Assembly: GCA_000091205.1 (NCBI GenBank)
Contig: AP006486.2
Strand: one strand, 5' to 3'
Length of the DNA stretch: 64,000 bases
Origin: Cyanidioschyzon merolae
Taxonomy: Eukaryota
Shown here: in pieces, positions 12,991-34,184 of the stretch
Layout of the letters: each line of letters starts with the position of its first letter
Position numbering within the stretch: the stretch's first letter is position 1
The notes under the pieces: model-generated
Seen by the model: only the letters and a program-made list of their open reading frames with translations
What the model was told of the DNA's origin: nothing
The model's database searches: none
Program-made: the position numbers and the translations under genes

Positions 12991-13152
12991 GGCGGGTCGC
13001 TCGCCATTACTGTACACTGGCGGCAGCGTTTTTCTTTTGAAAGGCGTTTGTTATCGCTGCCGTGGCCAAAAGAAACTTTTAAAAGCGATCACGAGGCTTG
13101 ACCAAGACCGCACAAAGGCGACGGCTTGTGAGCAACAACAGAGGTGCTCTTC

Positions 13153-16100
13153 ATGTCCAATGTCGAGCGGCACGAGGAGCCAAACGGAGCGCAGACGCTG
13201 AAGACCTGGCGAACGCTGGAGATCGCCGGGCTGGAGGTAAAGTTCCCCACAGAATTGGAACCGCACAAGCCGCAGTTGATCATTATGAACCAAGTGATAA
13301 GATGTTTGCAGCGGGCGCAAAACGCGTGCATAGAATCACCTACGGGAACGGGCAAGTCGTTGGCGTTACTCTGTTCGGCGCTGGCGTGGCTCGAAAAAGA
13401 GAAAGAGCGCTCAGAGCCCAGTCTATTAGCGGTTGCAAATCACGCTGATATGCACTCCGAATTTAAACCCGAAACTGAAGAACCCGCCGACGAGAAGCAA
13501 TCAATCCCGAAATTGCTGCCTGAGAGCCGCTCTGCGGCGGATGACTGCGGCGTTCAAGATGTCGACGACGACGACGATGATGATGACTTTACCAGCCGAC
13601 CGGCTCCGCGAGTATCGCAGTTGAAAAGCGCTTCACAGAGATGGCGTCAGCAAGGTGCTGTGGCTGGTACGCGGCATCGATATCCACTTTGTGGAAAGCA
13701 GGTCCCACTGAACCCGCTCTGCAGTGTCGCAGTGCACCTGGAGGGTACGAACCTTGCCGTACAGCAGAGGCACCCACGGATTTTCTTCTGTTCGCGTACG
13801 CACGCTCAACTCTCCCAGGTCATCGCAGAGATGCGCCGCACTCCATACGCTGGTAAGATGCGTTCCACACTGCTGGCGTCGCGGAAGCACTACTGCGTAC
13901 ATGAGGATATTCAGAGAGCGCCATCGACTCTGCAAGCGGAAGCTTGTCAGCGAGCCGTCCAGCTCAGCTTCATGGAGGAGGCCAAGTCTGCAGCTGATGC
14001 ATCCAGCACAGTAGCTGACCCTCTGGCAGGAATATCGCCCTGCTTCTATCATCACAGCGCCGCGGTGAGGCGAACAGCGTGTTCGGCCCCGCAGCCTTTT
14101 CAAATGGAAGATCTCGTGCAAGTCGGTCGCCACTGGCATGGTTGTCCGTATTTTGCATCTCGCTTTCTCGTCCATGGTGACATTCAAACGGAACCAAATC
14201 AAGACTCTGTTGAAGGATCAAGCGTCCCCGACGAACGCTCGCACACGGGAAGCGCTTCGTCTACGGATGGTGCCGTAAGCGCCCGGGCGACTTCATGTAC
14301 AACGCGGACACGAACGATCATAGAGCCTGCTGATATCATCTTTTCTCCATATTCATACCTTGTGGATCCGCTCATTCGTCGACGCATGGATATCGATATC
14401 ACCGGTGCCGTATTGATAATCGACGAAGCTCACAACATAGAAGAGGTGTGCTTAGAAGCGGCATCAGTAGACGTAAGTCTATCACAGGTGCAACGGGTTC
14501 TCCTGCAGCTAGATCACTATCTGGGGGTTCAGATGCCGGAAACAGAGCCCACCCTGGAGACACTGATGGTCCGGCGTCCGTCGTTGAATGGTACGGCGTT
14601 ACTTCGAGTGTTCCGCCACTGGTTGCAGGCCCTAGCGTCCTTCATTGAGACACGAATACCGCTGTTAGATGACATTCACGGCATTCCCGAAAGTCATCGT
14701 CCGACGTCTGGCCCATGCACTGCAGCGCAACGTCTTCATGCACAGGCCACGGTTTTCTGGCAAGACGGTGCTCTCTTGCATGAGTTAGAGGTAGGGTTTT
14801 TCCAAAATTTTGACTTTGAGCAGTGGAACTGGTCCATGGGCCAGTTAAACCGTTTTCTTGATCGCTGGCGTCAGAAACAGCAGCGCACGGTGCCGGCTTT
14901 GGCTTCAGGAATGGCGGCCTCGACGGGCTTTGGAACGGAAACAGCGACCGAAGAACATGCTGAACAGTCGGTGCAGGCGCGTCCCACGACGGGCGATGAG
15001 CGTGCAGAAACCGAGCCCCGCTTCGCGTCTCTGTGCGGTGAAGTGCTCCATCTGCTAGAACGCTTCCACATTGCGCTGCAGTTTATTTACGGCGGACAGA
15101 GCTCGAAGGGCGCAGCTGCACCTGCGGAGGCTTCCCTGCTGCACGCCACAGACTATAGACTTGTACTGAGACGCGAGATGCGCCAGGGCACCTACGGAGG
15201 AGTTGAATTCAAACTTGGACTTTGGTGCATGAATCCCGCAATTGCTTTTCGTCATCTGCGAGACAATGCGCGATCCATCGTGCTTACTTCGGGAACACTA
15301 TCGCCAATGGAATCTTTTCGAAGTGAACTTGCGACCGATTTTCTGTGTCAGACAGAATGCGACCACATTATCGATCCAGAGAAACACGTTCGAGTTTGCG
15401 TTGTGGGAACCAGCAGCTCCGGCGACCGTCTAGAGGGTTCCTACCGAACGAGCGCTACCTGGTCATATCAGGATGCCATCGGCGAAGCGCTTGCGCACTG
15501 CAGCGCACAGATTCCCGATGGTGTGCTCTGTTTCATGCCCTGCTATCGAGTCTTGGAGTCTATGTTGCAGCGCTGGAGCAGCACCGGCGCGATCGAGCGG
15601 ATTTGTGGTGCTAAGCGTCTCTTCATCGAGCGCTCTTCTGGACAAGTTATAACAGAATATGCGACCGAGACTGCTGGCGGATACAGACTTCAGCGTCGTG
15701 GTTGGCGCGACTCCTGCTTTACCCCTGCAAGGGAATATGGGACGGATGCATCTGTGGCGGCTCTCGGGGAACGGCCGAGCTCATTACGTGCTGCGTCTTC
15801 CAGTATCCTGTCTCGGGACCGGTCCAAGCGGAAACGACGCGGTGCTGGTCGAGCGTACACCTCCGCGTCAGCGTATGCAAACCGCGATGCTTTGCAGGTC
15901 TACTACGATGCGGTGGATGCAGCGCGGACTGAGACCACTGCGAGCGCACCGGTACCAGCTGCCAACGCGCGCTGTCGAATAACCGCTGATCACAAAAACG
16001 GGGCCATTATGCTGGCTGTTTGCCGGGGCAAGATCAGCGAAGGATTGAACTTTGCCGATCAGTACGGTCGCGCAGTCATTATGGTCGGTATTCCGTACCC

Positions 16101-16464
16101 CAATCTGACGGACACGTTTGTCCAGCTGAAGATGCGCTACAATGACGAGCGCAGCGGTGCAGTTTCTGGTGCTCCCATCAATGCTACGAGCACGAGTCGT
16201 CTGAGTGGCAAACAATGGTATGTTCTACAAGCGCATCGTACCGTGAACCAAGCTCTGGGAAGGTGCATTCGCAACCCTAAGGACTATGCGTCGATCATTC
16301 TTCTCGATGTTCGCTATCGCGATACGCGAACAGTGAACTGCATGTGTCGGTGGATCAGGGACCCGCTCCGCGATTATATTGCCAGGCACGGCCAGACGCT
16401 CACCCTAGAGGCAGCAGTCCGTGAAGTAGCAGAATTTTTCTTCCAGAAATATGACGCGAAATAG
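13153..16464 (+). CDS. Rad3/XPD-family Fe-S DEAH-box DNA helicase (DDX11/Chl1- or FANCJ/RTEL1-like)
   Basis: N-terminal VKFPTELEPHKPQLIIMNQV...ESPTGTGKSLALLCSALAW, an acidic D8 insertion after motif I, Fe-S Cys residues (HYCVHE ... GCPYFASR), DEAH box VLIIDEAHNIEE and C-terminal HD2 motifs GKISEGLNF...MVGIPYP...QALGRCIRNPKDYASIILLDVRY. The first ATG is at 13153 (the track start at 13144 is GTG). Confidence 0.8.
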   Translation: MSNVERHEEPNGAQTLKTWRTLEIAGLEVKFPTELEPHKPQLIIMNQVIRCLQRAQNACIESPTGTGKSLALLCSALAWLEKEKERSEPSLLAVANHADMHSEFKPETEEPADEKQSIPKLLPESRSAADDCGVQDVDDDDDDDDFTSRPAPRVSQLKSASQRWRQQGAVAGTRHRYPLCGKQVPLNPLCSVAVHLEGTNLAVQQRHPRIFFCSRTHAQLSQVIAEMRRTPYAGKMRSTLLASRKHYCVHEDIQRAPSTLQAEACQRAVQLSFMEEAKSAADASSTVADPLAGISPCFYHHSAAVRRTACSAPQPFQMEDLVQVGRHWHGCPYFASRFLVHGDIQTEPNQDSVEGSSVPDERSHTGSASSTDGAVSARATSCTTRTRTIIEPADIIFSPYSYLVDPLIRRRMDIDITGAVLIIDEAHNIEEVCLEAASVDVSLSQVQRVLLQLDHYLGVQMPETEPTLETLMVRRPSLNGTALLRVFRHWLQALASFIETRIPLLDDIHGIPESHRPTSGPCTAAQRLHAQATVFWQDGALLHELEVGFFQNFDFEQWNWSMGQLNRFLDRWRQKQQRTVPALASGMAASTGFGTETATEEHAEQSVQARPTTGDERAETEPRFASLCGEVLHLLERFHIALQFIYGGQSSKGAAAPAEASLLHATDYRLVLRREMRQGTYGGVEFKLGLWCMNPAIAFRHLRDNARSIVLTSGTLSPMESFRSELATDFLCQTECDHIIDPEKHVRVCVVGTSSSGDRLEGSYRTSATWSYQDAIGEALAHCSAQIPDGVLCFMPCYRVLESMLQRWSSTGAIERICGAKRLFIERSSGQVITEYATETAGGYRLQRRGWRDSCFTPAREYGTDASVAALGERPSSLRAASSSILSRDRSKRKRRGAGRAYTSASAYANRDALQVYYDAVDAARTETTASAPVPAANARCRITADHKNGAIMLAVCRGKISEGLNFADQYGRAVIMVGIPYPNLTDTFVQLKMRYNDERSGAVSGAPINATSTSRLSGKQWYVLQAHRTVNQALGRCIRNPKDYASIILLDVRYRDTRTVNCMCRWIRDPLRDYIARHGQTLTLEAAVREVAEFFFQKYDAK

Positions 16465-18046: not shown

Positions 18047-19930
18047 ATGGAAGCGTTGCGTATCACATTCTGGTATCTCAGATACTGGAACACAATAATC
18101 ACCGATAAAGGTCACCAGCTTTGCTTTGGGGAAAAGCATCGCCCGCGTAGGCTCGGGATAGCGCAATCGCTCGTCCAGGGCATCGGCGCTCATTGTCGCA
18201 CGGATCTATGCCATTATTTTTGGCGCGAAACGGTGAGCATCGCGTCGGTTGGAATTTCGATTCTCCACTGGGTGTATCTTTTGTTTGGCGCGTGCACTGG
18301 AGCAGCTGAAACGCTGCTGTGCACAGATCGCGTTCTCGCTCCTGGTGTGGACGCTCTTGGTACCATGCCGCGGGGAACAGATGCAACGGCTTCAGATGAG
18401 CGCGAGCAAGAAGAGCAGGCTCGAGCAACGAGACCACGGCGACGGGCAGCCGCGCGGTATGGCTCACAGAAGCGCTCGGTTGCGGTGGATCCCGCGTACT
18501 ACCTCGGGTACGCCGACGATGATGAGACTCCAGAGATGATCATGCGTAAGTTTGAGGCACTTGAGCGGTTGCAGGCTCAGAAAGCCGCAAATACCCAGCA
18601 GTCTTCGGGTGATGCGAACGACTCCCAGACGGCGAAAGAAGAAGTCACACTGACCGCTGCAGAGCAGGCGGAGCTCTTCCGCCAGACCTCTTTTTTCTCC
18701 GTGGACATGTTGGCAGGCTCCACGACACAGAGTCTACCGGGTGGTGTAGGTGAATCAACTGACCTAATCGCGGTGGGTGCGCTAGATGATTCCTCTTTTG
18801 AACGCGTGCTTGCAGAGTACGGCCTCGACGCTGTTCTATTTGGTGCGGAGCTCTCCGACTCTGAACCAGGATCTGAGTACGACGACGGCGAAGACCTTCT
18901 CTGGGAGGAGGCGCTTGAAAGCGATCGTAGTGCTCGGTTTCCAGGTCGGCTAACCCGCTCTCGCCCGGACCGCAGCGAGTCGAGCCGCGTTGCGCTCGAG
19001 TTATGGAGAGCGCGGGCAGCACTGCTCATGCGCCTCAGCGCTGGAGGGGATGCTCTGGCAGCAGCTCAGGCGGCTGCGATGATCCCCGCGGCCTTACGGG
19101 CCCGCAGACGGCGGCTAGCGGCAGAGGGTGTTCTGCGCGAGACGATTCCCACAGAGTATCCTCTACCAGTAAGCTGGGCCAGGACGATCAGGCCTCTGCG
19201 TGAAGCCGTCCAAGAGGGTCAAAAGCTGGAGCGGAATTACGAATGTGGCCGCCTGCTGCGATTCGCGAACGTGTTCCAGGCCGCCAAGACACTGCATGAA
19301 CGTATCAAAGGGCGCCATTTTCGTTGCGTCGTGCTGGATCCGCCCTGCTGGAATCAACCGGACTTTCGTGTTGAACAGTTGCGAAGCCTCCGAATCGCTG
19401 AAATCGTACCCTTCGGTTTCGTCTTTATTTGGGTCCCGAAAACACGTATCGCTGAGACCCTGCGCTGGTTTGGCGAGGAGATGCACCAAGGTGGGGGCGG
19501 TGGTTTCCATTTTGTCGAGAGCTTCTGCGTCGTCCTTAAATGGACCAATAATCGCGTGGCTACGCTCCTGTCAGAGCCGAGCGATCTGCTATGCCTGGAC
19601 CAGCCCGTAGCGGTGGCAGAGCATGCGCCCTCGGGCGTATACGCGTGCAGTCATGAGACTTGCCTTGTCCTGCGTCGACCAGGCCCCCATATTGAGCTGG
19701 CCCATCAACGCAATCCCGATCTCTGCTTTGATTACGTGCGTCTGCACCAGAAGAGGTATCAACGGCGTCGTCCGGAGCTATTCTATCACATGATCGAGAC
19801 CATGCTACCCGAAGTCGCACGCGATGGCGATATGCTCTGCGTCTGGGCGGACCAGAGTGTTTGCAAACGAACCTGCTGGGTGTCGGTTGTAGAGGACCAG
19901 TCTCTGGAAGCAGGCGAATCTTCCTCGTAG
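18047..19930 (+). CDS. MT-A70 family (N6-adenine) methyltransferase-like protein with an acidic N-terminal region. An alternative start ATG lies at 18365.
   Basis: C-terminal region CVVLDPPCWNQPD...LRIAEIVPFGFVFIWVPKTRIAETLRWFGEEM...FHFVESFCVVLKWTNNRV matches the MT-A70 motif IV (DPPW-like) and downstream conserved blocks. Confidence 0.7.
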   Translation: MEALRITFWYLRYWNTIITDKGHQLCFGEKHRPRRLGIAQSLVQGIGAHCRTDLCHYFWRETVSIASVGISILHWVYLLFGACTGAAETLLCTDRVLAPGVDALGTMPRGTDATASDEREQEEQARATRPRRRAAARYGSQKRSVAVDPAYYLGYADDDETPEMIMRKFEALERLQAQKAANTQQSSGDANDSQTAKEEVTLTAAEQAELFRQTSFFSVDMLAGSTTQSLPGGVGESTDLIAVGALDDSSFERVLAEYGLDAVLFGAELSDSEPGSEYDDGEDLLWEEALESDRSARFPGRLTRSRPDRSESSRVALELWRARAALLMRLSAGGDALAAAQAAAMIPAALRARRRRLAAEGVLRETIPTEYPLPVSWARTIRPLREAVQEGQKLERNYECGRLLRFANVFQAAKTLHERIKGRHFRCVVLDPPCWNQPDFRVEQLRSLRIAEIVPFGFVFIWVPKTRIAETLRWFGEEMHQGGGGGFHFVESFCVVLKWTNNRVATLLSEPSDLLCLDQPVAVAEHAPSGVYACSHETCLVLRRPGPHIELAHQRNPDLCFDYVRLHQKRYQRRRPELFYHMIETMLPEVARDGDMLCVWADQSVCKRTCWVSVVEDQSLEAGESSS

Positions 19931-21835: not shown

Positions 21836-24800
21836 CTACGACAACGTACCCGAAGTGATCTGCTCGAGAACACCTTGTTCCCAAGCCAGTTGGTAGAAAA
21901 GCGAGTCTCGACGCTGTAGCAACGACGCAGGTGACCCGCATTCGACAACACGCCCTGCGGCGAGACCGATGATGAGATCACAATCCAATATCGTATCCAT
22001 ACGATGTGCGATAATGAGGAGTGTCGAGCCCTGTAGGCAAGCTCGAATCGTCCGCTGGATCGCTCGATCTGTACGGTAATCAAGGTTCGCGGTACTCTCG
22101 TCCAGGACGAGGACACGAGGTCGCCGCAGAAGCACTCGTGCTAAACACAACAACTGCCGTTGGCCTGCGGACAAGTTAGAGCCACCCTCCGCAATGTGGG
22201 TATCTAACGACGGAAACCGGTTACTCGACTTCAACGCAGGCATACTCCGCGCCTGCTCTTCCTGCTGCTTGAGAGCGGCAGTGCTTGCACCATGCGCTGC
22301 GAGCGTTCCGTGCTCAGCAACTGCATCGGCGGCGTTCACGGCTGCATCGGTGCCGGTCTTCGTGTGGGCGCTCGTGTCGCCGTGGCGACAACCAGCCACA
22401 GCAGTTTTCGTCGCAGTTCGGTCCACAGCCGCCCACGCGGAATGCGTATCGTTTTCCGCCAGGCTAACGTACCGCAGCGCCTGCCACAACTCCGCGTCAG
22501 TATGGCGATGAAACGGATCCAGGTTTTCTCGGAGCGTTCCGCGGAAAAGAATGGTATCCTGGGTGACCATCGCAAGGCGTTCACGCAACTGCGCCACCCC
22601 GACTCGGCTGATATCGATCCCGTCCACGATGACGGCTCCGGCTTGTAGCGGATCGCCCACAGTGCGAAATAGCACCTGTGCAATGGAAGACTTGCCGGCA
22701 CCGGTGCGACCTATGAGACCAACCCGTTGTCCAGGAAGGATCGTAAACGACACCCCACGCAACGCTGGCGGCAACTCTGGTCGATAACGCATCCAGACGT
22801 CGCGAAACTCGACCCGTCCTTCGCTTGGCCAGTGCGCTGGAAGGGAGCCTTCGATGTACGCAGGCGCCTCACTGGGAATCTCCCAGAGGATGCGCTCCAC
22901 AGCGCTCATACCGTTCTCGACTTCGGTGGTCATCCGAACCAGCCATGAGAGTGTCTGCGTCACCAGGAGGCTATAGGTTATCGAAAGACCTGCCGCCGCC
23001 GGACTAAGGCTCCGGCGAAAGAGAAACACAGCGAGTGCAGTGGCGAACACCGTCATTGCACTGAGCATCTCCAGTCGGAAAGACAGCCAACGATTACAGG
23101 CAACGGAGTAGAGGTACGGCCGCATATGATCCGCCACTGCCTCGAGGAAGACCTGAACATGTTCTCGAACGAGTCCAAAAGCTCGAATGACTGGTATTCC
23201 GGCAGCTGTTTCTCCCATTCGTGCAAGGATTGGCGACTTGCTGAGCGCCTCGAGTCGTTTTAACTCGCGCGACGTACACAGATAGTAGCGCGAGAGGCGG
23301 TAATAGAGAATCCCAGTGGGTATCAGCACCAGGAGCATGACAGGCGTCACCGTGCTGGTCACCCAGACCACCCCCAAAACCTGAAGAATGCAGTTCAGGA
23401 AAGACAGCAGCGCATAGGGGAGGTCTTCATCGAGGGCGTCCTGATCTTTGCTGAAACGATTCAGGATCCGGCCCACGGGAGTTGTATCGAAGAACATCGT
23501 CGGTGCCCGCAGCACGACCTGCAGCAAGCGCGTGTGAAGACCAATTGCAGCAGACAGCGTACTCAAAGCTGCCAGAATGGACCGTGCTAACAACATCAGC
23601 AAGGTGGATAAATTCAGCAGGGCGTAAATCCCCAGATAGAAAGATGTCGCGTGGAGTACGCGCTGCGAATCCGACCGAGACGTCTCAGCTGCGCGTTCAC
23701 GACTCGGACGGTTCGGGAACCCCCAGAATATGCTTTGCTTCCACGAGCGTCCTTGCTGGTAGCGTGATGTAAGCGCATCTGCACAAGAGCGATGTTGTTG
23801 GTACTGTTGCCACCCTCTGTGCTCCTGATCCGGAGTTAGCACAGAGACAACTTGATGCTCTTCGGCAGCGAGATGTGATCCAGAAGGCGTCATAAGATTT
23901 TGGATACGGGTTCGCACCCCTGGAGACATTTTCGGGACATGCCCAAGCCCTGGGGCACCCGTAGGCAACCCAGAGGGCGTAGAGGGGTTTCGCTTATCGG
24001 CACCAGTTCGTTGCGCAGCGCTGGTGGCAGCTCGCGAGCCCGCCTCAGACCAGATACCAAGCCATGAATCTGTTCCGATGCGGAAAACCTGTGCCAACAC
24101 TGACGCCAAAATCGTTACTGCTAACAGGAACCGACCTGCTGCTGCAAAGTACGCGAGGTAAACAGTCCTTTTCACGGATCCGGTTTCTCGATTCTCTGCT
24201 GTAACCAGTTGATGGGAGGTAGTGCCTGGGGCTTCGGGCATCGACTCGGGATCCGCAGACGGGGCTGCACCATCTGCAGGACTCTCGTGGTTGCTCGCCA
24301 CCGCGTACGTCGCCCTAGACCGCAACGCATACTTGTCGTTGTCATTGTTGTCAGCGAACTGGTCGAACGCATTGCCTTTCGCGTGCGGCGTCGCCCCTTG
24401 CTCTATGCCAGGTCGCGACGACTGCGCTATCGACACTTCGCTCAGGGGCAGGTCTCCGACAGCGTGTTCCGCAGCGAGTGCATCTTCAGGGGCGCCACGC
24501 CCAGCACCAGCAGTAGCATCAATAGTGCCCAGCGGGAAAGAGCCTGATACCTCCAGCTCATTGCTGTGTTCCATGACGAGTGGCTCCGCTGCCCGCGACG
24601 TTGGCACTCGAAAAGCACCCGCTTTGTCGCCGGAAGCTAACAGCTGTTTCTCATCGTTCTCGGCATCCGACAAAAGCGATACCTGTATGGGGGACGCTTG
24701 CTGATCCCGGGGCTTCCCCCTGGGGATCCTCAGCGGTTGCGGACGAACGCTGTGCCGCTGAATGCGTCCGCCCGCAAGTTCGATCACCAGGTCGGCACGA

Positions 24801-27800
24801 GAAAGCCACTGGCGGTGGTGTGTTACCAGGATTCGGGTGCGACCTCGAGCCAGCGGGCCGCACAGCGCTCGCTCAAACAGAACACGACCCACAGTGGCAT
24901 CTACTGCAGACAGCGGGTCATCCAGCAGCAAGAGTGAGGCGCATGAGTAGAGTGCTCGCGCCAAGGCAACTCGCGCTTTCTGACCACCGCTCAAGTTGAT
25001 GCCTTTGCTCCCAATCTCTGTGCGGTCTCCGGCGGGCATCTGGGCAAGGTCGTCGACCAGCGCTGTGGCCTCGAGCACTTCCCGGTACCTTTGTTCGTCC
25101 AGAGGTGTGTAGAAGAGGATATTCTCGCGGAGCGAGGCGTTCATGAGATACGCCTCCTGTGGACAATAGCCGATCGTCGTTGGTCGAACGAGGTGATGGG
25201 CGCCCTGGTACGACGAAGCAAACGACCGGGTTGTTTTGGCTTCGAAAGTGGTGCTCATCGCAGCCTCCACAGTCGCTGGATAGCCATACAGCTCACCGAG
25301 AATGGCCAGTAACAGAGAGGATTTTCCACTTCCGACCTCACCACAAATGAGCACAAGTTGTCCGCGCTGAATCTGCAACGTGATATCGTGGAGCACCCAC
25401 GATAAAGTTCCCTGACCTGGAGACGCTTCAGTCATCTCCGGGGTATTTTTCAGCGCATTTTTCCGAGACGGAACGGTGCCTGCCTGATTTGTAGCGAAAG
25501 GCCCGGCGCCCGTATTCGTGTCCGTATCCATATCCATAATCGTATCCATATCCGGATCACATGCGGCTGCGTTGCGGAACGTTTGCCCCAGATGCACAGA
25601 TGCCGTCGTCTGGTCAACGGCCTTGTCGTCGGGCACTAGGCCGCCATGGACACCCTGAACGACACTGCCCTCATAGGTCGAACGGTCTACGTCATTGTGC
25701 TTGGCTCCGAATGAACACGATACTGCATCGAGATTCTGAATTGACGCTGCCAGTTCATGGCGGGGCACCAATAGTGATGATCCACCCATAGACGACTGCC
25801 CAGATGCGCTACTGTGTACACTAGGTACTCCCAGAAGCAGCGATGCATCAAGCTGCATCGGCAGAGGCTCAAAAGCGTACGACATGTGGCGTAGCGAAAT
25901 CACCACGTCGTCGCCTGGAGCTTCCATTCCAGGCGTCGCTTCGTTCCAGTGCCCTGCGCGGAAACTCGTACCATACGGAGGAAGCAATCGACTTGCAGTT
26001 GTCTGCCGCTGATGCAGACGAGACTCTTGGTGTTCTTGCAGCGATGTGGATCGCGCTGCGGATGTATCCGATAAAAAGGGCAGTGAAGGCACTCGCAACA
26101 ACTCAGAACCCGGTGTCTCGCGGGTTGCAGCTGACCCTGCGTCAATAAACAATGAAGCCTCTGCCGGTGCATCAGTGGATCGCATCGTTTCGGTACCTGC
26201 AACAGGAAAATGTGTCACGTCTGCTGCTGCTGCTTTGGATGCGCTCTGCGAGTTTGCCACACGATCAAGTCCGTTCGCTGGTCCACCCCCGAGGAAACTA
26301 CTGGTCGCCTTTCGAGCAACGGATGGCCGTCCAGCGAGCGTCTCGGATACCTCAGTGCCGCTCGAAGCAGAATCCGTTTCCACTGCATCCAACGCGAACC
26401 GCTCCGGTACCTCATAGTGACAGAGAAAGGCCTGGATCCGCCGTAGACTCACAGCGGCGTCCATAAGGGAACTGAGCACGTCCGGAAAAACACTCAGCGG
26501 GAAACGCAAGATATTGAAGAGCGTCAGCGCTCCAAAGGCAGTTGCGGGCGTCAAACGCTGCGCGCTGGGGCCCACACCCATGCAGCCAAAAGTTACCAGC
26601 GCCGTTGCGACAGGCGCAGCAGCCCAAGAAAAGTTCGAGAACGCTTCTAAAAGTTGTTTGCGACGCAAAACTTGCGTCTCCCGCAGCCTCGCTTCCTGAA
26701 CGCGTTCAAAAAAGGCCTGCTCCCAGCCCATGATCTTGATCTGTCGAATACCCGACAAGATTTCATGGAGCAGTCGAATCCGTTCATCTTTGCGTTCCAT
26801 CAGCGCTCGACTTTGTTGCCCAATTAAGCGAGCTACCCAGCCATTTAGCGGAATAAGCGCCGCCATGAACAGGAAGCCCGCAAAGGCCGCCATACCTACC
26901 ACTCGATACAAGCACACCATGGCGATGATGATCTGCAACGGACCAGACCAAATGATGTGCAGGTACGGGGTCAGGTCCACGGTTGCGCGTTGGGTATCCA
27001 CTGCCAACAGATTCACAATGTCTCCAGCTCCGTAATGGTTGCGGGCGCAAACACTCAACCGAAGTGTCTTGCGATAAATGGCATCCATGAGTGCAGCCCG
27101 TGCCTGCATCCCAACGCGGTAATTCATATGGAAATACTGGTGTAGGCAGATCGATTGCAACATTGGAGCAGTGAAAAGTGCTAGCACGCAGAGCATGCCT
27201 TCAAGAGAGCTTTCTTCGTGTGCACCACGCGACAAGAACTGCAGCATGCGTTCCAGCGCTAGTGGCCCTACAAAGTTCAGCAGATCATAGCACAGCTTGA
27301 GTGGTGCAGAACCCAGACAGCGCCCTCCGAACGCGTCTAACAGGGCCAGCACGACCGCTCCGAGACCTTGTTCCGGTCGCTTCGGTACGACATCTTCGCG
27401 GCATTCAGTAGATACGCTCAGAGGACGCGGTGACTTCGCAACGGTATGCGGTGAAGCCAGAAACGCTTCGTGGTTTGTTTGCTCCTCCTCGGGATCTGTG
27501 GGCGACATCGCTACTCCAGACCTGTGCAGTATCCAAAGGCGAAGCTGTGAAAAGAGCCCGCAAATGCCACGCGGATGAGGTACGTGCGGCGCTTCACGCG
27601 TGGCTCGACCCTGGCTATGGTCACGAGCACGGGGCCGGTACTGGTGGCGTTCACAGCGGCGTTTCCAGGTTTCCTGGAACCGAGCACTAATCCTAGTAGG
27701 ATCATCGATGCTGGGCAAGGACCACAAGTCGTCCAGTTCCAAAGGTTTGATTTTTCCCAGTTCTAGAAGTGCATTCAGCCAGCGGAACGTGATTCGCGTC

Positions 27801-28003
27801 CACAGTCCAGCGTCCTGCTCAGGACAGCGCAGGGCGGCACAGACGAGCCGCTCCTGTGGGAACTGCCAACTGGATGGCGCTCTACCTGGACCATTTTCTG
27901 TCCACAAAAAAGTCTCTTTCTCTTCGACGAGTCGAAACGTCTCCTCGTCGTCGATAGAAGCAGGCAACTGCGCAGGAGACGTCGCCGCTGCTCCCGTGGG
28001 CAT
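21836..28003 (-). CDS. ABCC/MRP-type full-size ABC transporter (TMD1-NBD1-TMD2-NBD2, no TMD0) with very large low-complexity insertions
   Basis: ITFRWLNALLELGKIKPLELDDLW start; NBD1 Walker A GEVGSGKSS and signature LSGGQKARVALARALY; NBD2 Walker A GRTGAGKSS, signature LSAGQRQLLCLARVLL, Walker B VLVLDESTANLD and H-loop IIAHR. Continuous 2055-aa ORF. Confidence 0.85.
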   Translation of the reverse strand: MPTGAAATSPAQLPASIDDEETFRLVEEKETFLWTENGPGRAPSSWQFPQERLVCAALRCPEQDAGLWTRITFRWLNALLELGKIKPLELDDLWSLPSIDDPTRISARFQETWKRRCERHQYRPRARDHSQGRATREAPHVPHPRGICGLFSQLRLWILHRSGVAMSPTDPEEEQTNHEAFLASPHTVAKSPRPLSVSTECREDVVPKRPEQGLGAVVLALLDAFGGRCLGSAPLKLCYDLLNFVGPLALERMLQFLSRGAHEESSLEGMLCVLALFTAPMLQSICLHQYFHMNYRVGMQARAALMDAIYRKTLRLSVCARNHYGAGDIVNLLAVDTQRATVDLTPYLHIIWSGPLQIIIAMVCLYRVVGMAAFAGFLFMAALIPLNGWVARLIGQQSRALMERKDERIRLLHEILSGIRQIKIMGWEQAFFERVQEARLRETQVLRRKQLLEAFSNFSWAAAPVATALVTFGCMGVGPSAQRLTPATAFGALTLFNILRFPLSVFPDVLSSLMDAAVSLRRIQAFLCHYEVPERFALDAVETDSASSGTEVSETLAGRPSVARKATSSFLGGGPANGLDRVANSQSASKAAAADVTHFPVAGTETMRSTDAPAEASLFIDAGSAATRETPGSELLRVPSLPFLSDTSAARSTSLQEHQESRLHQRQTTASRLLPPYGTSFRAGHWNEATPGMEAPGDDVVISLRHMSYAFEPLPMQLDASLLLGVPSVHSSASGQSSMGGSSLLVPRHELAASIQNLDAVSCSFGAKHNDVDRSTYEGSVVQGVHGGLVPDDKAVDQTTASVHLGQTFRNAAACDPDMDTIMDMDTDTNTGAGPFATNQAGTVPSRKNALKNTPEMTEASPGQGTLSWVLHDITLQIQRGQLVLICGEVGSGKSSLLLAILGELYGYPATVEAAMSTTFEAKTTRSFASSYQGAHHLVRPTTIGYCPQEAYLMNASLRENILFYTPLDEQRYREVLEATALVDDLAQMPAGDRTEIGSKGINLSGGQKARVALARALYSCASLLLLDDPLSAVDATVGRVLFERALCGPLARGRTRILVTHHRQWLSRADLVIELAGGRIQRHSVRPQPLRIPRGKPRDQQASPIQVSLLSDAENDEKQLLASGDKAGAFRVPTSRAAEPLVMEHSNELEVSGSFPLGTIDATAGAGRGAPEDALAAEHAVGDLPLSEVSIAQSSRPGIEQGATPHAKGNAFDQFADNNDNDKYALRSRATYAVASNHESPADGAAPSADPESMPEAPGTTSHQLVTAENRETGSVKRTVYLAYFAAAGRFLLAVTILASVLAQVFRIGTDSWLGIWSEAGSRAATSAAQRTGADKRNPSTPSGLPTGAPGLGHVPKMSPGVRTRIQNLMTPSGSHLAAEEHQVVSVLTPDQEHRGWQQYQQHRSCADALTSRYQQGRSWKQSIFWGFPNRPSRERAAETSRSDSQRVLHATSFYLGIYALLNLSTLLMLLARSILAALSTLSAAIGLHTRLLQVVLRAPTMFFDTTPVGRILNRFSKDQDALDEDLPYALLSFLNCILQVLGVVWVTSTVTPVMLLVLIPTGILYYRLSRYYLCTSRELKRLEALSKSPILARMGETAAGIPVIRAFGLVREHVQVFLEAVADHMRPYLYSVACNRWLSFRLEMLSAMTVFATALAVFLFRRSLSPAAAGLSITYSLLVTQTLSWLVRMTTEVENGMSAVERILWEIPSEAPAYIEGSLPAHWPSEGRVEFRDVWMRYRPELPPALRGVSFTILPGQRVGLIGRTGAGKSSIAQVLFRTVGDPLQAGAVIVDGIDISRVGVAQLRERLAMVTQDTILFRGTLRENLDPFHRHTDAELWQALRYVSLAENDTHSAWAAVDRTATKTAVAGCRHGDTSAHTKTGTDAAVNAADAVAEHGTLAAHGASTAALKQQEEQARSMPALKSSNRFPSLDTHIAEGGSNLSAGQRQLLCLARVLLRRPRVLVLDESTANLDYRTDRAIQRTIRACLQGSTLLIIAHRMDTILDCDLIIGLAAGRVVECGSPASLLQRRDSLFYQLAWEQGVLEQITSGTLS

Positions 28004-28843: not shown

Positions 28844-31132
28844 TTATCGATTCAGATGTCGAATATAGAGTAGCGCCAGCGTGTTCGCGATACGGAAAAG
28901 CGCATAGAATCCAGCCACCGCTCCGATATCGATCCATTTCCAGTTCGCATGGAGTCCAAATTCTTCAATAATCTGGCGCCCATTGGTCACGGGGCAATAG
29001 CGGCAACACGCCACCGAGCCGTTTGCTACTGTAACGCCCGCAGCCGCACATACCGAAGCACTGGTTTCGTTGTAATAGTTCAGCGTGCCACCGTCGCTGC
29101 AGTCGCCGTTGAAACTCGGTGGTAACGGGAAGAACCGAAACTCACCAGGGTCGCAGTGAAAGGCCACGTTATCCACACAGGCGACGACGACTCCTTCGAG
29201 CGCCCATCGGTAGGGGTCAGCGTAGTAGGCCCACCAGAGCCAATGAGGAATATCCGGATACGGCTGCAAGAAGCCAGAGAACACGTTCATTAGCGGGATC
29301 AACATACCCACGATCATGACACCAACGACCTGAGAGCTCAACAACGCGGCCAAGAGTTGACCGAGACTCGTCGTGAACAAACTAAACAGGATATTCATCA
29401 GCAAAAAGTAGCCATACTGCGCAGCAGGGTAGCCTACCATGAAGAAAACTAAAAGCGTGAAAATGACGGAACCTACAATCGTGTAGGGGATTTCCGCAAT
29501 GCCAATAGCAAACGCATAGGCGATGGGTTTGTAGGTGCCAGAAGCGATCTCTCGATAGAAAGCTGCTCTTTCCTGAAAAGTCGGCCCCAGCACGTTCTGG
29601 ATTAGAAATACGCCATACAGTAGAGATAAATAGACTACAGAGACGTAAGAGTCCAGCGCGGTATTATTTCGTGGCAACTTGAGGAAGAAGAGTCCGATCA
29701 TGAGACCCAGAGCGACTGCGAGCACCATGCGCGAGAAGTTGTACGTTGGGGTGCGCCAGTAGGAGATGAGCTGTCGAATGGTCACGTAGTACGCACGTCG
29801 CCACTGCTGTCGTCGAGTCGGCGGCTTGTATGTTAACGTGTACCTTCCTCGAGATGTCTTTTTCAGCTCTTCAAGCTTTTCAAGAGCAGCTTTGCACTCC
29901 TGCGAGTCTTGCCAGATGTCCGCCCAGTCTCGCATTTGCGCTTTGCGTTTCGAATCAATTCCACCACCAATAACGCGCAGCATATAGTCCGCGGGGTTGG
30001 TCATGTCGTCGATTGGCTCTGCACCATTGCGTGCAAAGTAGGAAGTCATGGAAGTACACGCATCACCGAGTTCTCCAAAGTAGACAGTTCGGCCACCGGA
30101 CCTCATCAGGAGCAGGTCGTCGAATGCACCAAACACTTCAAAAGATGGTTGATGGATAACCGAAACAACGGCGCAGTCGTTGTCCGCGAGTGCTCGGATG
30201 GCTCTCATCACTCGCAGTGCCGATCGGGCGTCAAGTCCAGAAGTCGGCTCGTCGAGGAAGTACAACGATGCGTTTGCCGCATACTCCACGGCAATGGAGA
30301 GGCGCTTCCTCGCATCACTACTGATCACGCCAGATGCTTCCGAATCGGCCTCGCTCCCGACTAGTCGATTTCGATCAACACTCAAGTTCATTATTTCAAG
30401 AATATACTCCGTAAACTGTTTGGCAACACTATCTGGAGTGCCTGGAGGTAAACGAGTACGTGCAGCGAAGAGCACCGCCTCGTGGACCGTTTGTTTGCTT
30501 ATATGCAGGTCGCGCTGCTCGACGTATCCCATAAAATGCGTCAGAAAACTGTAATCGACAGGTTCCCCATTAACACATATCTCGCCTGCGATACGCCCTT
30601 TGGTTTTGCGGTTCGCGAGCACATCGAGCAAGGTTGACTTTCCTGCGCCCGACGCACCACAGAGCGCAAGCAGACGGCGCGGCTGCGCGAACCCGAAAAC
30701 ATCGTACAGTAGTTGCAGTTCGCCGTCCTCTGCGTCGGAATGCGCGTCTACATGAGCCACTTGTTCGGTTTGTGGTGGCGGTTGAGGTGCTTCGGTTGAT
30801 GAGCCCGACTCAAGGTCCCGTTCTGCTTCAACCTCCTTCACTGTGGCCGCTTTGCTTTCTTTAACTTTTTTACGACGAACCAACTTCTGCAGTGAACGTT
30901 TTTCTTTGAGTTTAGGAACCGGAACCCAGTACGAAATTCCCTTCCATGTGAATATAAGAGGTTGCGGTTCCAAGACAGCACGCTCAACGTGCAGCGCAGC
31001 CGGGTCTATGGAAAAGCTCGAAGCCTGGCCAAAACTCGTGACCTGCTCTTGTGAGATGCTGTACTCACTGATAGAACGTGGATTTACAGAGTCGTCACCG
31101 TGGCGTCGCGGGTACTCCCTTGACGTCGCCAT
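28844..31132 (-). CDS. ABCG/PDR-type half transporter (NBD-TMD) matching the C-terminal half (NBD2-TMD2) of a full-size PDR pump
   Basis: LIFTWKGISYWVPVP start-of-NBD2 motif, canonical Walker A GASGAGKST, degenerate signature ISSDARKRLSIAVE, intact Walker B LYFLDEPTSGLDA, H-loop VIHQPS, then 6 TM helices. ATG at 31132 was verified. Confidence 0.85.
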   Translation of the reverse strand: MATSREYPRRHGDDSVNPRSISEYSISQEQVTSFGQASSFSIDPAALHVERAVLEPQPLIFTWKGISYWVPVPKLKEKRSLQKLVRRKKVKESKAATVKEVEAERDLESGSSTEAPQPPPQTEQVAHVDAHSDAEDGELQLLYDVFGFAQPRRLLALCGASGAGKSTLLDVLANRKTKGRIAGEICVNGEPVDYSFLTHFMGYVEQRDLHISKQTVHEAVLFAARTRLPPGTPDSVAKQFTEYILEIMNLSVDRNRLVGSEADSEASGVISSDARKRLSIAVEYAANASLYFLDEPTSGLDARSALRVMRAIRALADNDCAVVSVIHQPSFEVFGAFDDLLLMRSGGRTVYFGELGDACTSMTSYFARNGAEPIDDMTNPADYMLRVIGGGIDSKRKAQMRDWADIWQDSQECKAALEKLEELKKTSRGRYTLTYKPPTRRQQWRRAYYVTIRQLISYWRTPTYNFSRMVLAVALGLMIGLFFLKLPRNNTALDSYVSVVYLSLLYGVFLIQNVLGPTFQERAAFYREIASGTYKPIAYAFAIGIAEIPYTIVGSVIFTLLVFFMVGYPAAQYGYFLLMNILFSLFTTSLGQLLAALLSSQVVGVMIVGMLIPLMNVFSGFLQPYPDIPHWLWWAYYADPYRWALEGVVVACVDNVAFHCDPGEFRFFPLPPSFNGDCSDGGTLNYYNETSASVCAAAGVTVANGSVACCRYCPVTNGRQIIEEFGLHANWKWIDIGAVAGFYALFRIANTLALLYIRHLNR

Positions 31133-31706: not shown

Positions 31707-34184
31707 ATGTCGGGCAACGAACTTGAGAAACACGTCGCGAACTTGGCGCACCTACATAGTTATCGTAGCGAGGTTCTCAAAAAGAGCAAGCTTCCACAGC
31801 CAGCGAAGGGAATTGCACGGCGAGCGGCGTCTCACTTTGTTAACTGGCGCCAGCTGCATAACTACCGCAAGGAGCTCGAGGAGCAATATGCGGAGTTTGC
31901 AACCGATCCCCGTTACCAAGTCGACTCGGACGAATTCGACCCGCAAGCCTACACAGAAGTTGTAAGTGCACTCCAGAGCGCGCTTCTTCTCAAACCGCCT
32001 CAAATTGCTATTGCCTGGAAGAACCTGACGGTGAAAGTTCCGGTTGTGTACGGGCGCACGGGGATCGAGACTGTCGGTTCGAAAACACAGGAAGCCGTGC
32101 TCGCACTGCCACGCGTAGCGATCGATATTGGGAAATGGATCTGGACGGACGTTTTCCGACAAGGGCTCAACAAAGACGCACATCTAGAACCGATAGTCGA
32201 CGACGCTACTGGTGTCCTGCTTCCCGGAGAGACGCTGCTGGTGCTGGGCCCGCCGGGCTCCGGCACCAGCACGTTTCTGAATGTGCTCGCGCAACGCAGT
32301 CTGAAAGACTACGCTGCCATCACCGGAACAGTTGAGTACAATGGGTGCGATTTACACACGGCAGAGAAGCGAACGGTGCGCCCACTGCAGCATATCGTGC
32401 AGTTTGTCGAAGAGGCAGATACACACATCGCCTCGTTGACGGTACGCGATACGTTCCGGTTTGCAGCCGAGTGTCTGATACCAGACTTTTTCCCGTTCGC
32501 GGAGAAGGTGCGTCAAGATCGCGTGGAGCTTCTTATTAAGAATCTGGGATTAGAGCATTGTGCGGACACTGTAGTGGGTAATGAACTCTTACGGGGAGTC
32601 AGCGGTGGAGAAAAGAAGCGAGTGACGATCGGAGAGATGGCGGTGCGGCTTTCGTCGCAAATTTGGCTGCTCGATCAATGGACTCGCGGTCTTGATGCGG
32701 CAACCGCAATGGATTTGCAATATCGAGTTGCCGCTGTAGCCAAGCAGCGCAATATTACTGTCATTTCTGTGATGCAACAGCCAAGTCAAGAGATTTACGA
32801 TGCGTACGACAAGGTCTTGTTGATGGAGGCAGGCAAAGTGCTCTACTTTGGGCCGACCAATGAGGCAGAGCGATACTTCTTCAAGCTTGGTTATCGGCGG
32901 CCACGCAAACGGCTCATTCCTGAGTTCTTAGCGACCCTTGGCGACCCATTCGAGTCGAAACTTTGCATTCGGCCTGGATATGAGGATCGCGTGCCGCGGA
33001 CACCAGCGGAGTTCGCCGAGCGCTACCGCAATTCCTCGATCGCCAGGCGCTATCGAGAGATGGTGGAATCGCATTCCTATCTAACCGACGAGCAGCGCGA
33101 AGCATTCAACCAGGAACGTTATGTCGAGATAAGCAAGTTGTACGTTCGCAACTCGCTCCAACCTCGCTTGCGCCAGATGTTCATATGTTTGAATCGCGAA
33201 ATTCGAATGATCATCACGGCACCGTTCTCTTTCATCGTACGCTTCGCTCGTTATATCATTCTGGGTATCGTGGTCGGTGCGCTCTTCTTCGGGATCAATC
33301 ATGATCAACTGAGCGTTCGCGTTCGTGGCGGTCTTCTTTTCCTTGTCCTCCTAACCGTCGGTGTCGCTGGCTTTTCTTCTATTCAGCAAAACGCGGCTAC
33401 TCTGCAAATCATACGAAAACAGCGACGAGCAGGCTTCTATGAAATGCCACCATACTTTTTTGCGCTCTGGTTGATGGATATTCCGATTCAGTTCATCGAA
33501 GTGCTCATTTACTTGACGCTTGTCACGTACATGACGAAATTGCAGGGAGGTCCTCGATACGGTTTTGCGATCTTGATGGTGTGGTTAACCGGTATGGCAA
33601 CCAATACCTTGCTCAAATCGATTGGCTACGCAGCACCCTACACGGATATTGCGCTCGTGCTGGCGAGTTTGGTGATCATGCTCATGGTTCTGAGTGTGGG
33701 TTTCTTGGCTACCCCACCGAACATACCCGTGTATCTTCGTTGGATCTACTGGATCAATCCGTTTCACTATGCTTATGAGGCCATCATGCTGAATGAATTC
33801 GATGGCCTGTATTTCCACTGTACACCGAGCGAACTGCAGCCTGCGGGTGTACCGTCGGCCTATCAGGTGTGCCCGATCACGAACGGCATCAAGTATTTAC
33901 ACAGTCACTACAACTTTGCGTCTAACCCGTCATACAAATGGATTGACTTTGTCATCATCGTGGCGTACTATGTTGGATTCACCATCATAGCAGCTATTCT
34001 TCTGGTGCTCGTGCGTTGGCCACCGCGCCCCATGTACAAGAACGCCCGAGAAGTCGCCTGCGAGACGGATGTTCAGACATTTGTGGAAAGTCTCGAGCGG
34101 GAGGCCTCGTTATCGGATCGTCGGTCGCGAGAAGTATCGAATCCGTTCACAGATCGAAAAATATCGACGAATTCCAGACCGTAA
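31707..34184 (+). CDS. ABCG/PDR-type half transporter (NBD-TMD) matching the N-terminal half (NBD1-TMD1) of a full-size PDR pump
   Basis: Degenerate Walker A GPPGSGTST (Lys to Thr), canonical signature VSGGEKKRVTIGEMA and Pdr5-like degenerate Walker B LLDQWTRGLDAATA (Glu to Gln), then 6 TM helices. ATG at 31707 was verified. Confidence 0.85.
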   Translation: MSGNELEKHVANLAHLHSYRSEVLKKSKLPQPAKGIARRAASHFVNWRQLHNYRKELEEQYAEFATDPRYQVDSDEFDPQAYTEVVSALQSALLLKPPQIAIAWKNLTVKVPVVYGRTGIETVGSKTQEAVLALPRVAIDIGKWIWTDVFRQGLNKDAHLEPIVDDATGVLLPGETLLVLGPPGSGTSTFLNVLAQRSLKDYAAITGTVEYNGCDLHTAEKRTVRPLQHIVQFVEEADTHIASLTVRDTFRFAAECLIPDFFPFAEKVRQDRVELLIKNLGLEHCADTVVGNELLRGVSGGEKKRVTIGEMAVRLSSQIWLLDQWTRGLDAATAMDLQYRVAAVAKQRNITVISVMQQPSQEIYDAYDKVLLMEAGKVLYFGPTNEAERYFFKLGYRRPRKRLIPEFLATLGDPFESKLCIRPGYEDRVPRTPAEFAERYRNSSIARRYREMVESHSYLTDEQREAFNQERYVEISKLYVRNSLQPRLRQMFICLNREIRMIITAPFSFIVRFARYIILGIVVGALFFGINHDQLSVRVRGGLLFLVLLTVGVAGFSSIQQNAATLQIIRKQRRAGFYEMPPYFFALWLMDIPIQFIEVLIYLTLVTYMTKLQGGPRYGFAILMVWLTGMATNTLLKSIGYAAPYTDIALVLASLVIMLMVLSVGFLATPPNIPVYLRWIYWINPFHYAYEAIMLNEFDGLYFHCTPSELQPAGVPSAYQVCPITNGIKYLHSHYNFASNPSYKWIDFVIIVAYYVGFTIIAAILLVLVRWPPRPMYKNAREVACETDVQTFVESLEREASLSDRRSREVSNPFTDRKISTNSRP

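Follow-up and report, generated by a model that had tools for sequence, protein, structure and literature searches.

What kind of protein carries an MT-A70-like methyltransferase domain whose catalytic motif IV reads Asp-Pro-Pro-Cys-Trp (DPPCW)? This question is raised by a gene at positions 18047–19930 (+ strand) of a 64,000-nucleotide stretch of red-algal nuclear DNA, which we refer to as the window. The maximal open reading frame (ORF) at this locus encodes 627 amino acids, and an ORF scan together with translation identity showed it to be the annotated gene CMD131C of Cyanidioschyzon merolae 10D (BAM79199.1 / XP_005535485.1), a 'hypothetical protein'. An earlier note, made from the DNA letters alone, had placed both the ORF and the DPPCW string correctly; its stramenopile framing does not apply to a red-algal protein. 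We found that CMD131C has an MT-A70 fold, that its sequence affinity is with the AMT6/7 (MTA9/MTA9-B) clade, that its catalytic positions are eroded and that the surfaces corresponding to those with which MTA9 meets its partners and DNA are conserved. We conclude, with a probability of roughly 0.78, that CMD131C is the C. merolae ortholog of the AMT6/7 clade and a catalytically dead structural subunit of a DNA adenine-methylation complex. Proteins of this kind were already known; CMD131C adds to the clade a red-algal member that earlier counts had left out. Residue numbers (for example, Cys328) refer to the 521-residue form of the protein, encoded by the probable true coding sequence (CDS; 18365–19930, + strand, 521 codons plus stop), which we describe as an AMT6/7 (MTA9)-type noncatalytic MT-A70 protein on the basis of ortholog alignment, constraint and profiles.

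CMD131C probably belongs to the AMT6/7 clade

The C-terminal domain had been assigned to MT-A70 in the earlier note, and this assignment stands, although Pfam alone would not have delivered it. The 627-residue ORF scored 12.4 bits (E = 0.15) against the MT-A70 model PF05063, short of the gathering threshold of 23.9 bits, and the 521-residue form gave no PF05063 match at E ≤ 0.01, a cut-off at which 39 of 49 relatives do match. The evidence comes instead from phmmer searches of the Protein Data Bank (PDB), from family profiles and from an AlphaFold2 (AF2) model compared by Foldseek. With the single sequence, phmmer retrieved only MTA9-type chains from the PDB, including Paramecium MTA9 (7f4s_D, 6e-6) and Tetrahymena MTA9-B (8xyl_B, 1.6e-4). 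When the protein and two alignments were used as queries, word-indexed homology searches gave only five or six Cyanidiophyceae-type proteins; an exhaustive HMMER profile search gave 947 matches at E ≤ 1e-3, many of them full-length proteins of 420–540 amino acids. Named relatives include the green algae Chloropicon, Myrmecia, Cymbomonas, Auxenochlorella, Edaphochlamys, Ostreobium and Pycnococcus, as well as Rhodelphis, a jakobid, a kickxellomycete fungus and the ichthyosporean Ichthyophonus. The nearest of these (green algae, Rhodelphis, fungi and ichthyosporeans) belong to lineages known for AMT1-dependent N6-methyladenine (6mA).

Profile searches against solved structures ranked the candidate clades. 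A 49-sequence profile matched MTA9/AMT7/MTA9-B at 7e-49 to 2e-43 and MTA1 at 2e-28, followed by METTL3 (1.6e-15), METTL14 (5e-15) and, as the weakest MT-A70 match, the METTL4-type chain 7cv6_B (4.5e-4). A profile restricted to Cyanidiophyceae matched MTA9-B at 1.9e-22, MTA9/AMT7 at about 1e-21 and MTA1 at 2.4e-6, and gave no match to METTL3 or METTL14 at E ≤ 1; METTL4 was absent too. The METTL4/DAMT comparison proposed earlier is therefore not supported. The MT-A70-fold (pseudo)methyltransferase domain extends over approximately residues 295–511 (19247–19897, + strand), as delimited by AF2, Foldseek and the profiles, and the AF2 model has predicted local distance difference test (pLDDT) values mostly of 90–96 across the C-terminal domain, an insertion loop excepted. 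MTA1c chains (MTA1 and MTA9) were the top Foldseek matches, followed by METTL3/METTL14, all with a probability of 1.0. Because Foldseek cannot separate MTA1 from MTA9 as the best match, the clade call rests on the sequence profiles.

The same degenerate-paralog logic also describes human METTL14, which has a similar fold and aids catalytic METTL3, so that CMD131C might instead be a METTL14-like noncatalytic partner of a writer of N6-methyladenosine (m6A) in RNA. The DPPL found at motif IV in sister species such as Cyanidiococcus resembles the METTL14 motif, EPPL. A plant-focused census that detected two MT-A70 genes in C. merolae labeled them 'MTA/MTB', but it listed no FIP37, VIR, HAKAI or YTH in this alga (PMC6576107). 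We consider a METTL14-like role highly improbable. METTL14 acts on an RNA substrate and lacks the HQRNPD loop that CMD131C shares with MTA9 and that sequence alignment shows to be missing from METTL3 as well; METTL14 and METTL3 go unmatched by the red-algal profile that finds MTA9-type chains at 1e-22; and neither METTL3 nor METTL14 is recorded in C. merolae (PMC12695648).

Motif IV and the SAM pocket are eroded

Motif IV lies within VVLDPPCWNQPD at nucleotides 19328–19363, where Asp325-Pro-Pro-Cys328 is followed by Trp329 (DPPCW, 19337–19351, + strand; ortholog and MTA9/METTL3 alignments). In an ungapped alignment to the NALW of Tetrahymena MTA9 and the DPPW of METTL3, Cys328 occupies the aromatic position and Trp329 comes next. 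The cysteine had been described earlier as either inserted before the aromatic residue or replacing it. This alignment favors replacement and speaks against insertion, though MAFFT can place the Cys or Leu as a one-residue insertion relative to the DPPW of Galdieria. Six close relatives read DPPC, DPPL, DPPL, DAPF, DPPW and NKPT, with W, W, W, E, C and W, respectively, as the next residue. The tetrapeptide takes 40 different forms across 136 family representatives; DPPL (29) and DPPW (26) are the commonest, and DPPC occurs only in C. merolae. CMD131C departs from the canonical pattern [DNSH]PP[YFW], yet 49 of the 136 (36%) retain it, so that the departure is not a clade-wide trait.

A side result concerns the clade as a whole: with a canonical motif in approximately 36% of AMT6/7-family members, the claim that the clade lacks the catalytic motif may fail outside ciliates.

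To map residues of the S-adenosylmethionine (SAM) pocket, we used a METTL3 catalytic-domain sequence that had been checked against the PDB. In the structure literature, the METTL3 positions that contact SAM are D377, E532, R536, H538/N539 and N549/Q550, a numbering that agrees with the checked sequence; CMD131C has R, C, D, S/V and E/D at these positions. Cys492 (19838–19840, + strand, by METTL3-numbered alignment) stands in place of Glu532, a SAM-ribose contact. The glutamate has been lost in the Cyanidioschyzon/Cyanidiococcus/Cyanidium lineage, and the family column at this position holds E in 110 of 142 sequences and C in 3. CMD131C thus lacks the catalytic hallmarks of AMT1, MTA1 and METTL3, both at motif IV, which reads DPPC, and in the SAM-binding residues, which are replaced.

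Orthologs from the same algal class differ in this respect. Galdieria sulphuraria XP_005707952.1, annotated as 'methyltransferase', and G. phlegrea Galph1/2787 share approximately 40% identity with CMD131C and have the same N-terminal blocks and domain order, but they keep DPPW, the Glu of the LLELW block and a METTL3-like KDIRQFD segment and pass the Pfam MT-A70 model. Erosion of the active site therefore forms a gradient within one algal class, furthest advanced in Cyanidioschyzon, Cyanidiococcus and Cyanidium and least in Galdieria.

Could CMD131C nevertheless be an active adenine methyltransferase with an unusual DPP-C-W motif IV, in which Trp329 stacks on the flipped adenine? Such an enzyme would make sense of the retained Asp325-Pro-Pro with Trp directly after it, of the one-residue insertion that MAFFT allows and of the canonical motif in 36% of the family. 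We judge it very unlikely, because motif positions 4 and 5 vary in sister species (C/L/L/F/W and W/W/W/E/C), all of the METTL3 SAM-pocket equivalents listed above are replaced, and the closest characterized proteins, MTA9 (NALW) and MTA9-B (NIKW), are pseudoenzymes that bind no SAM (PMC9852454, PMC11761967, PMC12485025). The conserved DPPW signature is carried by the catalytic subunit of their complexes (PMC9852454, PMC11761967). The earlier proposal that the altered motif tunes base flipping or stacking in an active enzyme is not supported, given the loss of the other SAM-pocket positions and the variation at position 4 among sister species. Its alternative, a noncatalytic paralog, fits well, since the AMT6/7 clade consists of pseudoenzymes with variously eroded motifs IV. 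It had also been anticipated that the Cys-Trp pair might align cleanly with a known active subfamily: the alignment is clean, the subfamily is the inactive MTA9 one, and for that subfamily the motif is ordinary. Most likely, to judge from these alignments, the cysteine of DPPC reflects ordinary decay of an unused active site, with motif and SAM pocket drifting, rather than new catalytic chemistry.

Surfaces for partners and DNA are conserved

Across the family, no stretch is more invariant than (E)L(R)HQRNPD, in which H447, Q448, R449 and D452 are each present in 145–148 of approximately 150 sequences. This clade signature loop reads ELAHQRNPD in CMD131C (residues 444–452; 19694–19720, + strand; family ELRHQRNPD) and corresponds to the β5/β6 loop of MTA9, aligning with E376-L-R378-H379-Q-R of 7yi8_A and keeping the equivalents of E376 and H379. 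In MTA9, E376, R378 and H379 contact p1 and R366 contacts the DNA backbone; in MTA9-B, activity is lost or strongly reduced when the corresponding residues are mutated (PMC12485025). The equivalent of R366 is Arg437, conserved in 90% or more of the 49 aligned sequences; that of MTA9 K374 is His442. Ahead of the domain, the N-terminal loop IPTEYPLPVSWARTIRP (19145–19195, + strand) aligns to PDNQLSLLLKWRNDKIPLKS, the 'NL' of MTA9, with P262 invariant and W271 at least 90% conserved across the 49 sequences. The MTA9 NL reaches across to the catalytic partner MTA1 (PMC9852454). Because the HQRNPD loop and Arg437 are conserved while catalytic positions erode, selection appears, from these alignments, to act on the partner and DNA surfaces and not on the active site.

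These features recur in the ciliate proteins. Tetrahymena MTA9/AMT7 (7yi8_A, 9o6k_A and 9u92_B) and Paramecium MTA9 (7f4s_D) have the MT-A70 fold in common with CMD131C and an eroded motif IV of their own (NALW versus DPPC), and they share the ELRHQR(N/T)xD loop, the R366-equivalent Arg, the N-terminal loop Trp ahead of the domain and the C-terminal IETLLP...ELW...GW blocks. In the alignment they lack the HYVGYVEDDETPEMIM/KKFEELE and LTxEQLxEVFKQTSxF blocks and have a long insertion region. CMD131C differs from them in turn by an Ala/Arg-rich insert, a Gly5 insert, Cys for Glu in the LLELW block and Ala for R378. Tetrahymena MTA9-B/AMT6 (8xyl_B), the top match of the red-algal profile, is a pseudoenzyme (NIKW) with the same heterodimer role, and one of its internal loops carries a PIP box that binds PCNA (PMC11761967).

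The N-terminal half contains conserved blocks

The N-terminal half of CMD131C had been characterized earlier as acidic and of low complexity. It is acidic (D+E 17.7%, with Ala at 16.9%), but it is not merely low-complexity, as several blocks within it are conserved from one eukaryotic supergroup to another. The first is a basic patch, RPRRR (residues 23–27; 18431–18445, + strand; family RP[KR]RR), identified by ortholog alignment; R23, P24, R26 and R27 are invariant in six orthologs, and the patch is also present in green-algal, fungal and ichthyosporean members. Conserved block 1, DPAYYLGYADDDETPEMIMRKFEALERLQ (18488–18574, + strand), has the family consensus HYVGYVEDDETPEMIMKKFEELE, with G48, Y49, E54, I59, K62 and F63 invariant in the 49-sequence alignment and an AF2 helix at residues 56–80 (pLDDT 81–88). 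The same alignment defines conserved block 2, LTAAEQAELFRQTSFFSVDML (18650–18712, + strand; family consensus LTxEQLxEVFKQTSxF), which is found in diverse lineages; T108 does not vary, at least 90% of the sequences agree at F105, S109 and F111, and helices are predicted at residues 98–108 and 113–123. The confidence of the helix predictions in these first blocks is moderate to good. Farther along, an acidic stretch with a conserved Trp, ELSDSEPGSEYDDGEDLLWEEALESD (18848–18925, + strand), aligns to the N-terminal 'KLEDFFDDLEED' region of Tetrahymena MTA9. Its residues D165, D173, D177 and W180 are invariant in six orthologs, and its pLDDT is low.

The profile alignment to Tetrahymena MTA9 begins at approximately residues 31–36, and blocks 1 and 2 are not aligned in that protein by the 49-sequence profile. 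Scanning the N-terminal module against Pfam at E ≤ 10 yielded nothing beyond noise. A similarity to huntingtin N17 (E of approximately 0.3) was rejected as a chance match between amphipathic helices. In ciliates, IBD2 and PCNA mediate the recruitment of AMT7 and AMT6 (PMC11761967). Since this recruitment operates through divergent tails and loops, we speculate, by analogy, that the N-terminal module of CMD131C may act in recruitment.

As an observation in its own right, the module encoded at 18431–18712 (residues 23–116) recurs in AMT6/7-type proteins across red algae, green algae, fungi and ichthyosporeans.

The gene is under constraint and its start is probably misannotated

The annotated ORF differs sharply in constraint along its length. 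Compared with a closely related JGI strain (L001), 10 of 11 nucleotide differences fall within the first 318 nucleotides (5 synonymous and 5 nonsynonymous), and the remaining 1,566 nucleotides contain one. The equivalent of Met107 is the start in all of the aligned orthologs, in which the extension is absent, and in the Cyanidiococcus ortholog in-frame stop codons shortly precede the ATG. GC content is 53% in the 5' extension, an intergenic-like value, and 59% in the CDS. Because the extension varies like noncoding DNA, is missing in orthologs, has upstream stops in its place and is intergenic-like in GC, we take the CDS to begin at 18365. The start of CMD131C is thus probably annotated 106 codons too far upstream, with the real start at Met107 of the annotated protein, and the first 106 codons (18047–18364, + strand) are probably an untranslated leader.

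These observations bear on whether CMD131C could be a decaying pseudogene or a misannotated ORF. Its only annotation is 'hypothetical protein', it has no Pfam match above threshold and its annotated 5' end is probably wrong, all of which would suit such a reading. We find it scarcely credible, given that a full-length ORF is kept across four genera, with orthologs in Cyanidiococcus, Cyanidium and Galdieria and with synteny, that the methyltransferase-like domain folds with high confidence in AF2 and that substitutions number 1 in 1,566 nucleotides of CDS against 10 in 318 nucleotides of leader. This last contrast points to strong purifying selection on the CDS relative to its 5' leader, and CMD131C is therefore a working gene. 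Between CMD131C and its Cyanidiococcus ortholog, dN (the nonsynonymous divergence) is 0.26 and dS (the synonymous divergence) is saturated, so that no dN/dS value can be given.

A proposed role in DNA adenine methylation

By analogy with the solved MTA1c complex of Tetrahymena, we infer that CMD131C heterodimerizes with AMT1 and that the output in C. merolae is DNA 6mA; the N-terminal module may serve recruitment. In the mechanism that we propose, the pseudomethyltransferase domain would pair side by side with an AMT1/MTA1-type catalytic subunit whose gene lies elsewhere in the genome (CME116C or CMH026C) and would shape or position the substrate-binding loop of that partner. Arg437 would provide backbone contacts to double-stranded DNA, the HQRNPD loop would serve as the docking site for a putative p1-like DNA-binding subunit, and the resulting complex would deposit 6mA at ApT sites. 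Without AMT6 or AMT7, the AMT1-AMTP1-AMTP2 subcomplex of Tetrahymena shows no activity (PMC11761967), and AMT6/7 co-occurs with AMT1 across eukaryotes (PMC12695648).

Several points weigh against assigning CMD131C to this role. The intact Asp325-Pro-Pro, with Trp directly after it, makes residual SAM or adenine binding formally possible. Arg378 of the p1-contact triad is replaced by Ala446, a change specific to the Cyanidioschyzon lineage. The clade ranking is one of profile E values against solved structures rather than a tree of the six MT-A70 clades, and, as AMT2/5 has no solved structure, ranking against the PDB cannot exclude AMT2/5 directly. The presence of AMT1 in C. merolae is taken from a published table and not from the partner sequence, and literature searches found no 6mA data for this alga. 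As to AMT2/5 membership, it is disfavored by the absence of extra Pfam domains such as ZZ and by the presence of the MTA9 signature loop, and because two other C. merolae genes already occupy the AMT1 and AMT2/5 slots.

A different arrangement would keep CMD131C as an AMT6/7-type pseudoenzyme but not as an obligate AMT1 partner: it might work with an AMT2/5-type paralog, of which C. merolae has one (PMC12695648), or alone, scaffolding chromatin by means of its N-terminal module. That module is conserved more strongly than much of the methyltransferase-like domain, and the replacement of Arg by Ala in the p1-contact loop is lineage-specific, as such an arrangement might lead one to expect. We regard it as unlikely in view of the co-occurrence of AMT6/7 with AMT1 and the dependence of the Tetrahymena AMT1 subcomplex on AMT6 or AMT7; we also found no evidence for pairing between AMT2/5 and AMT6/7.

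Beyond the role of CMD131C as an AMT1 partner, one can imagine a more far-reaching scenario, which is possible but doubtful. The Cyanidiophyceae would run a complete, overlooked AMT1-type 6mA pathway, and the N-terminal module of CMD131C (RPRRR, HYVGYVEDDETPEMIMKKFEELE and LTxEQLxEVFKQTSxF) would be an ancestral chromatin-recruitment handle that red and green algae, Rhodelphis, fungi and ichthyosporeans share and for which no counterpart was detected in Tetrahymena MTA9. The module might dock on histones/H2A.Z or on a BET-type reader, a job done in ciliates by IBD2 or PCNA. In the same scenario, the series from Galdieria (DPPW, Glu) to Cyanidioschyzon (DPPC, Cys) would capture a methyltransferase paralog in the course of losing its active site.

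CMD131C fills a gap in MT-A70 censuses

Our literature searches for CMD131C found nothing specific to the gene. A 2025 survey of 231 eukaryotes scored C. merolae as AMT1 = 1, AMT6/7 = 0, AMT2/5 = 1, METTL4 = 0, METTL3 = 0 and METTL14 = 0, and the only C. merolae taxa in its tree are CME116C and CMH026C (PMC12695648). That survey searched with the Pfam MT-A70 model at E ≤ 1e-4 and by BLASTP with Tetrahymena AMT6/7 (PMC12695648). Because CMD131C lies below the Pfam cut-off and had no match to Tetrahymena MTA9 in our single-sequence phmmer search of the PDB, it was very likely missed. CMD131C is an unrecognized third MT-A70-fold gene of C. merolae and fills the AMT6/7 slot.

The case has been made for AMT1-dependent 6mA at ApT as an ancestral chromatin mark of eukaryotes, and the co-occurrence of AMT1 with AMT6/7 is part of that case. 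With CMD131C as the missing partner, one apparent exception to this co-occurrence would be removed and 6mApT would be predicted in red algae of this class. C. merolae is a tractable red alga with a minimal genome, a single AMT6/7 gene and knock-outs by homologous recombination, and it is suited to testing both the pseudoenzyme and its N-terminal module. More generally, censuses based on Pfam and BLAST under-count the AMT6/7 clade.

Two further observations concern other algae. In the same survey, Ostreococcus and Micromonas are listed with AMT1 but without AMT6/7 (PMC12695648). Since the family is abundant in marine metagenomes (clusters P0025 and P0031, with contigs of up to 318 kb) and in other prasinophytes, the AMT6/7 count for these two genera may also be too low.

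Lineage-specific inserts and gene neighborhood

Two inserts distinguish the Cyanidioschyzon lineage from Galdieria. An Ala/Arg-rich helical insert (18980–19129, + strand; ortholog alignment), with predicted helices at residues 205–226 and 230–254, occurs in Cyanidioschyzon, Cyanidiococcus and Cyanidium, whereas Galdieria largely lacks it. Within the methyltransferase-like domain, a Gly5 run (HQGGGGGF; 19490–19504, + strand) has the same distribution, occurring in the three former genera and not in Galdieria.

Among the scanned ORFs of at least 250 amino acids in the 64-kb window, several such ORFs having been left unscanned, we found no second MT-A70 domain and no AMT1 gene. By domain scan, the upstream neighbor of CMD131C is a DEAD_2/Helicase_C_2 (XPD/RTEL-like) helicase (13144–16464, + strand), and the downstream neighbor, on the opposite strand, is an ABCC-type transporter of 2,055 amino acids (21836–28003, − strand). 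The order helicase, CMD131C ortholog, ABCC transporter is kept in Cyanidiococcus (L007). Beyond the transporter lies a divergently oriented pair of ABCG-type transporters (28844–31132, − strand, and 31707–34184, + strand). A DnaJ protein and an HhH-GPD glycosylase are also among the neighbors, all of them ordinary eukaryotic housekeeping genes.

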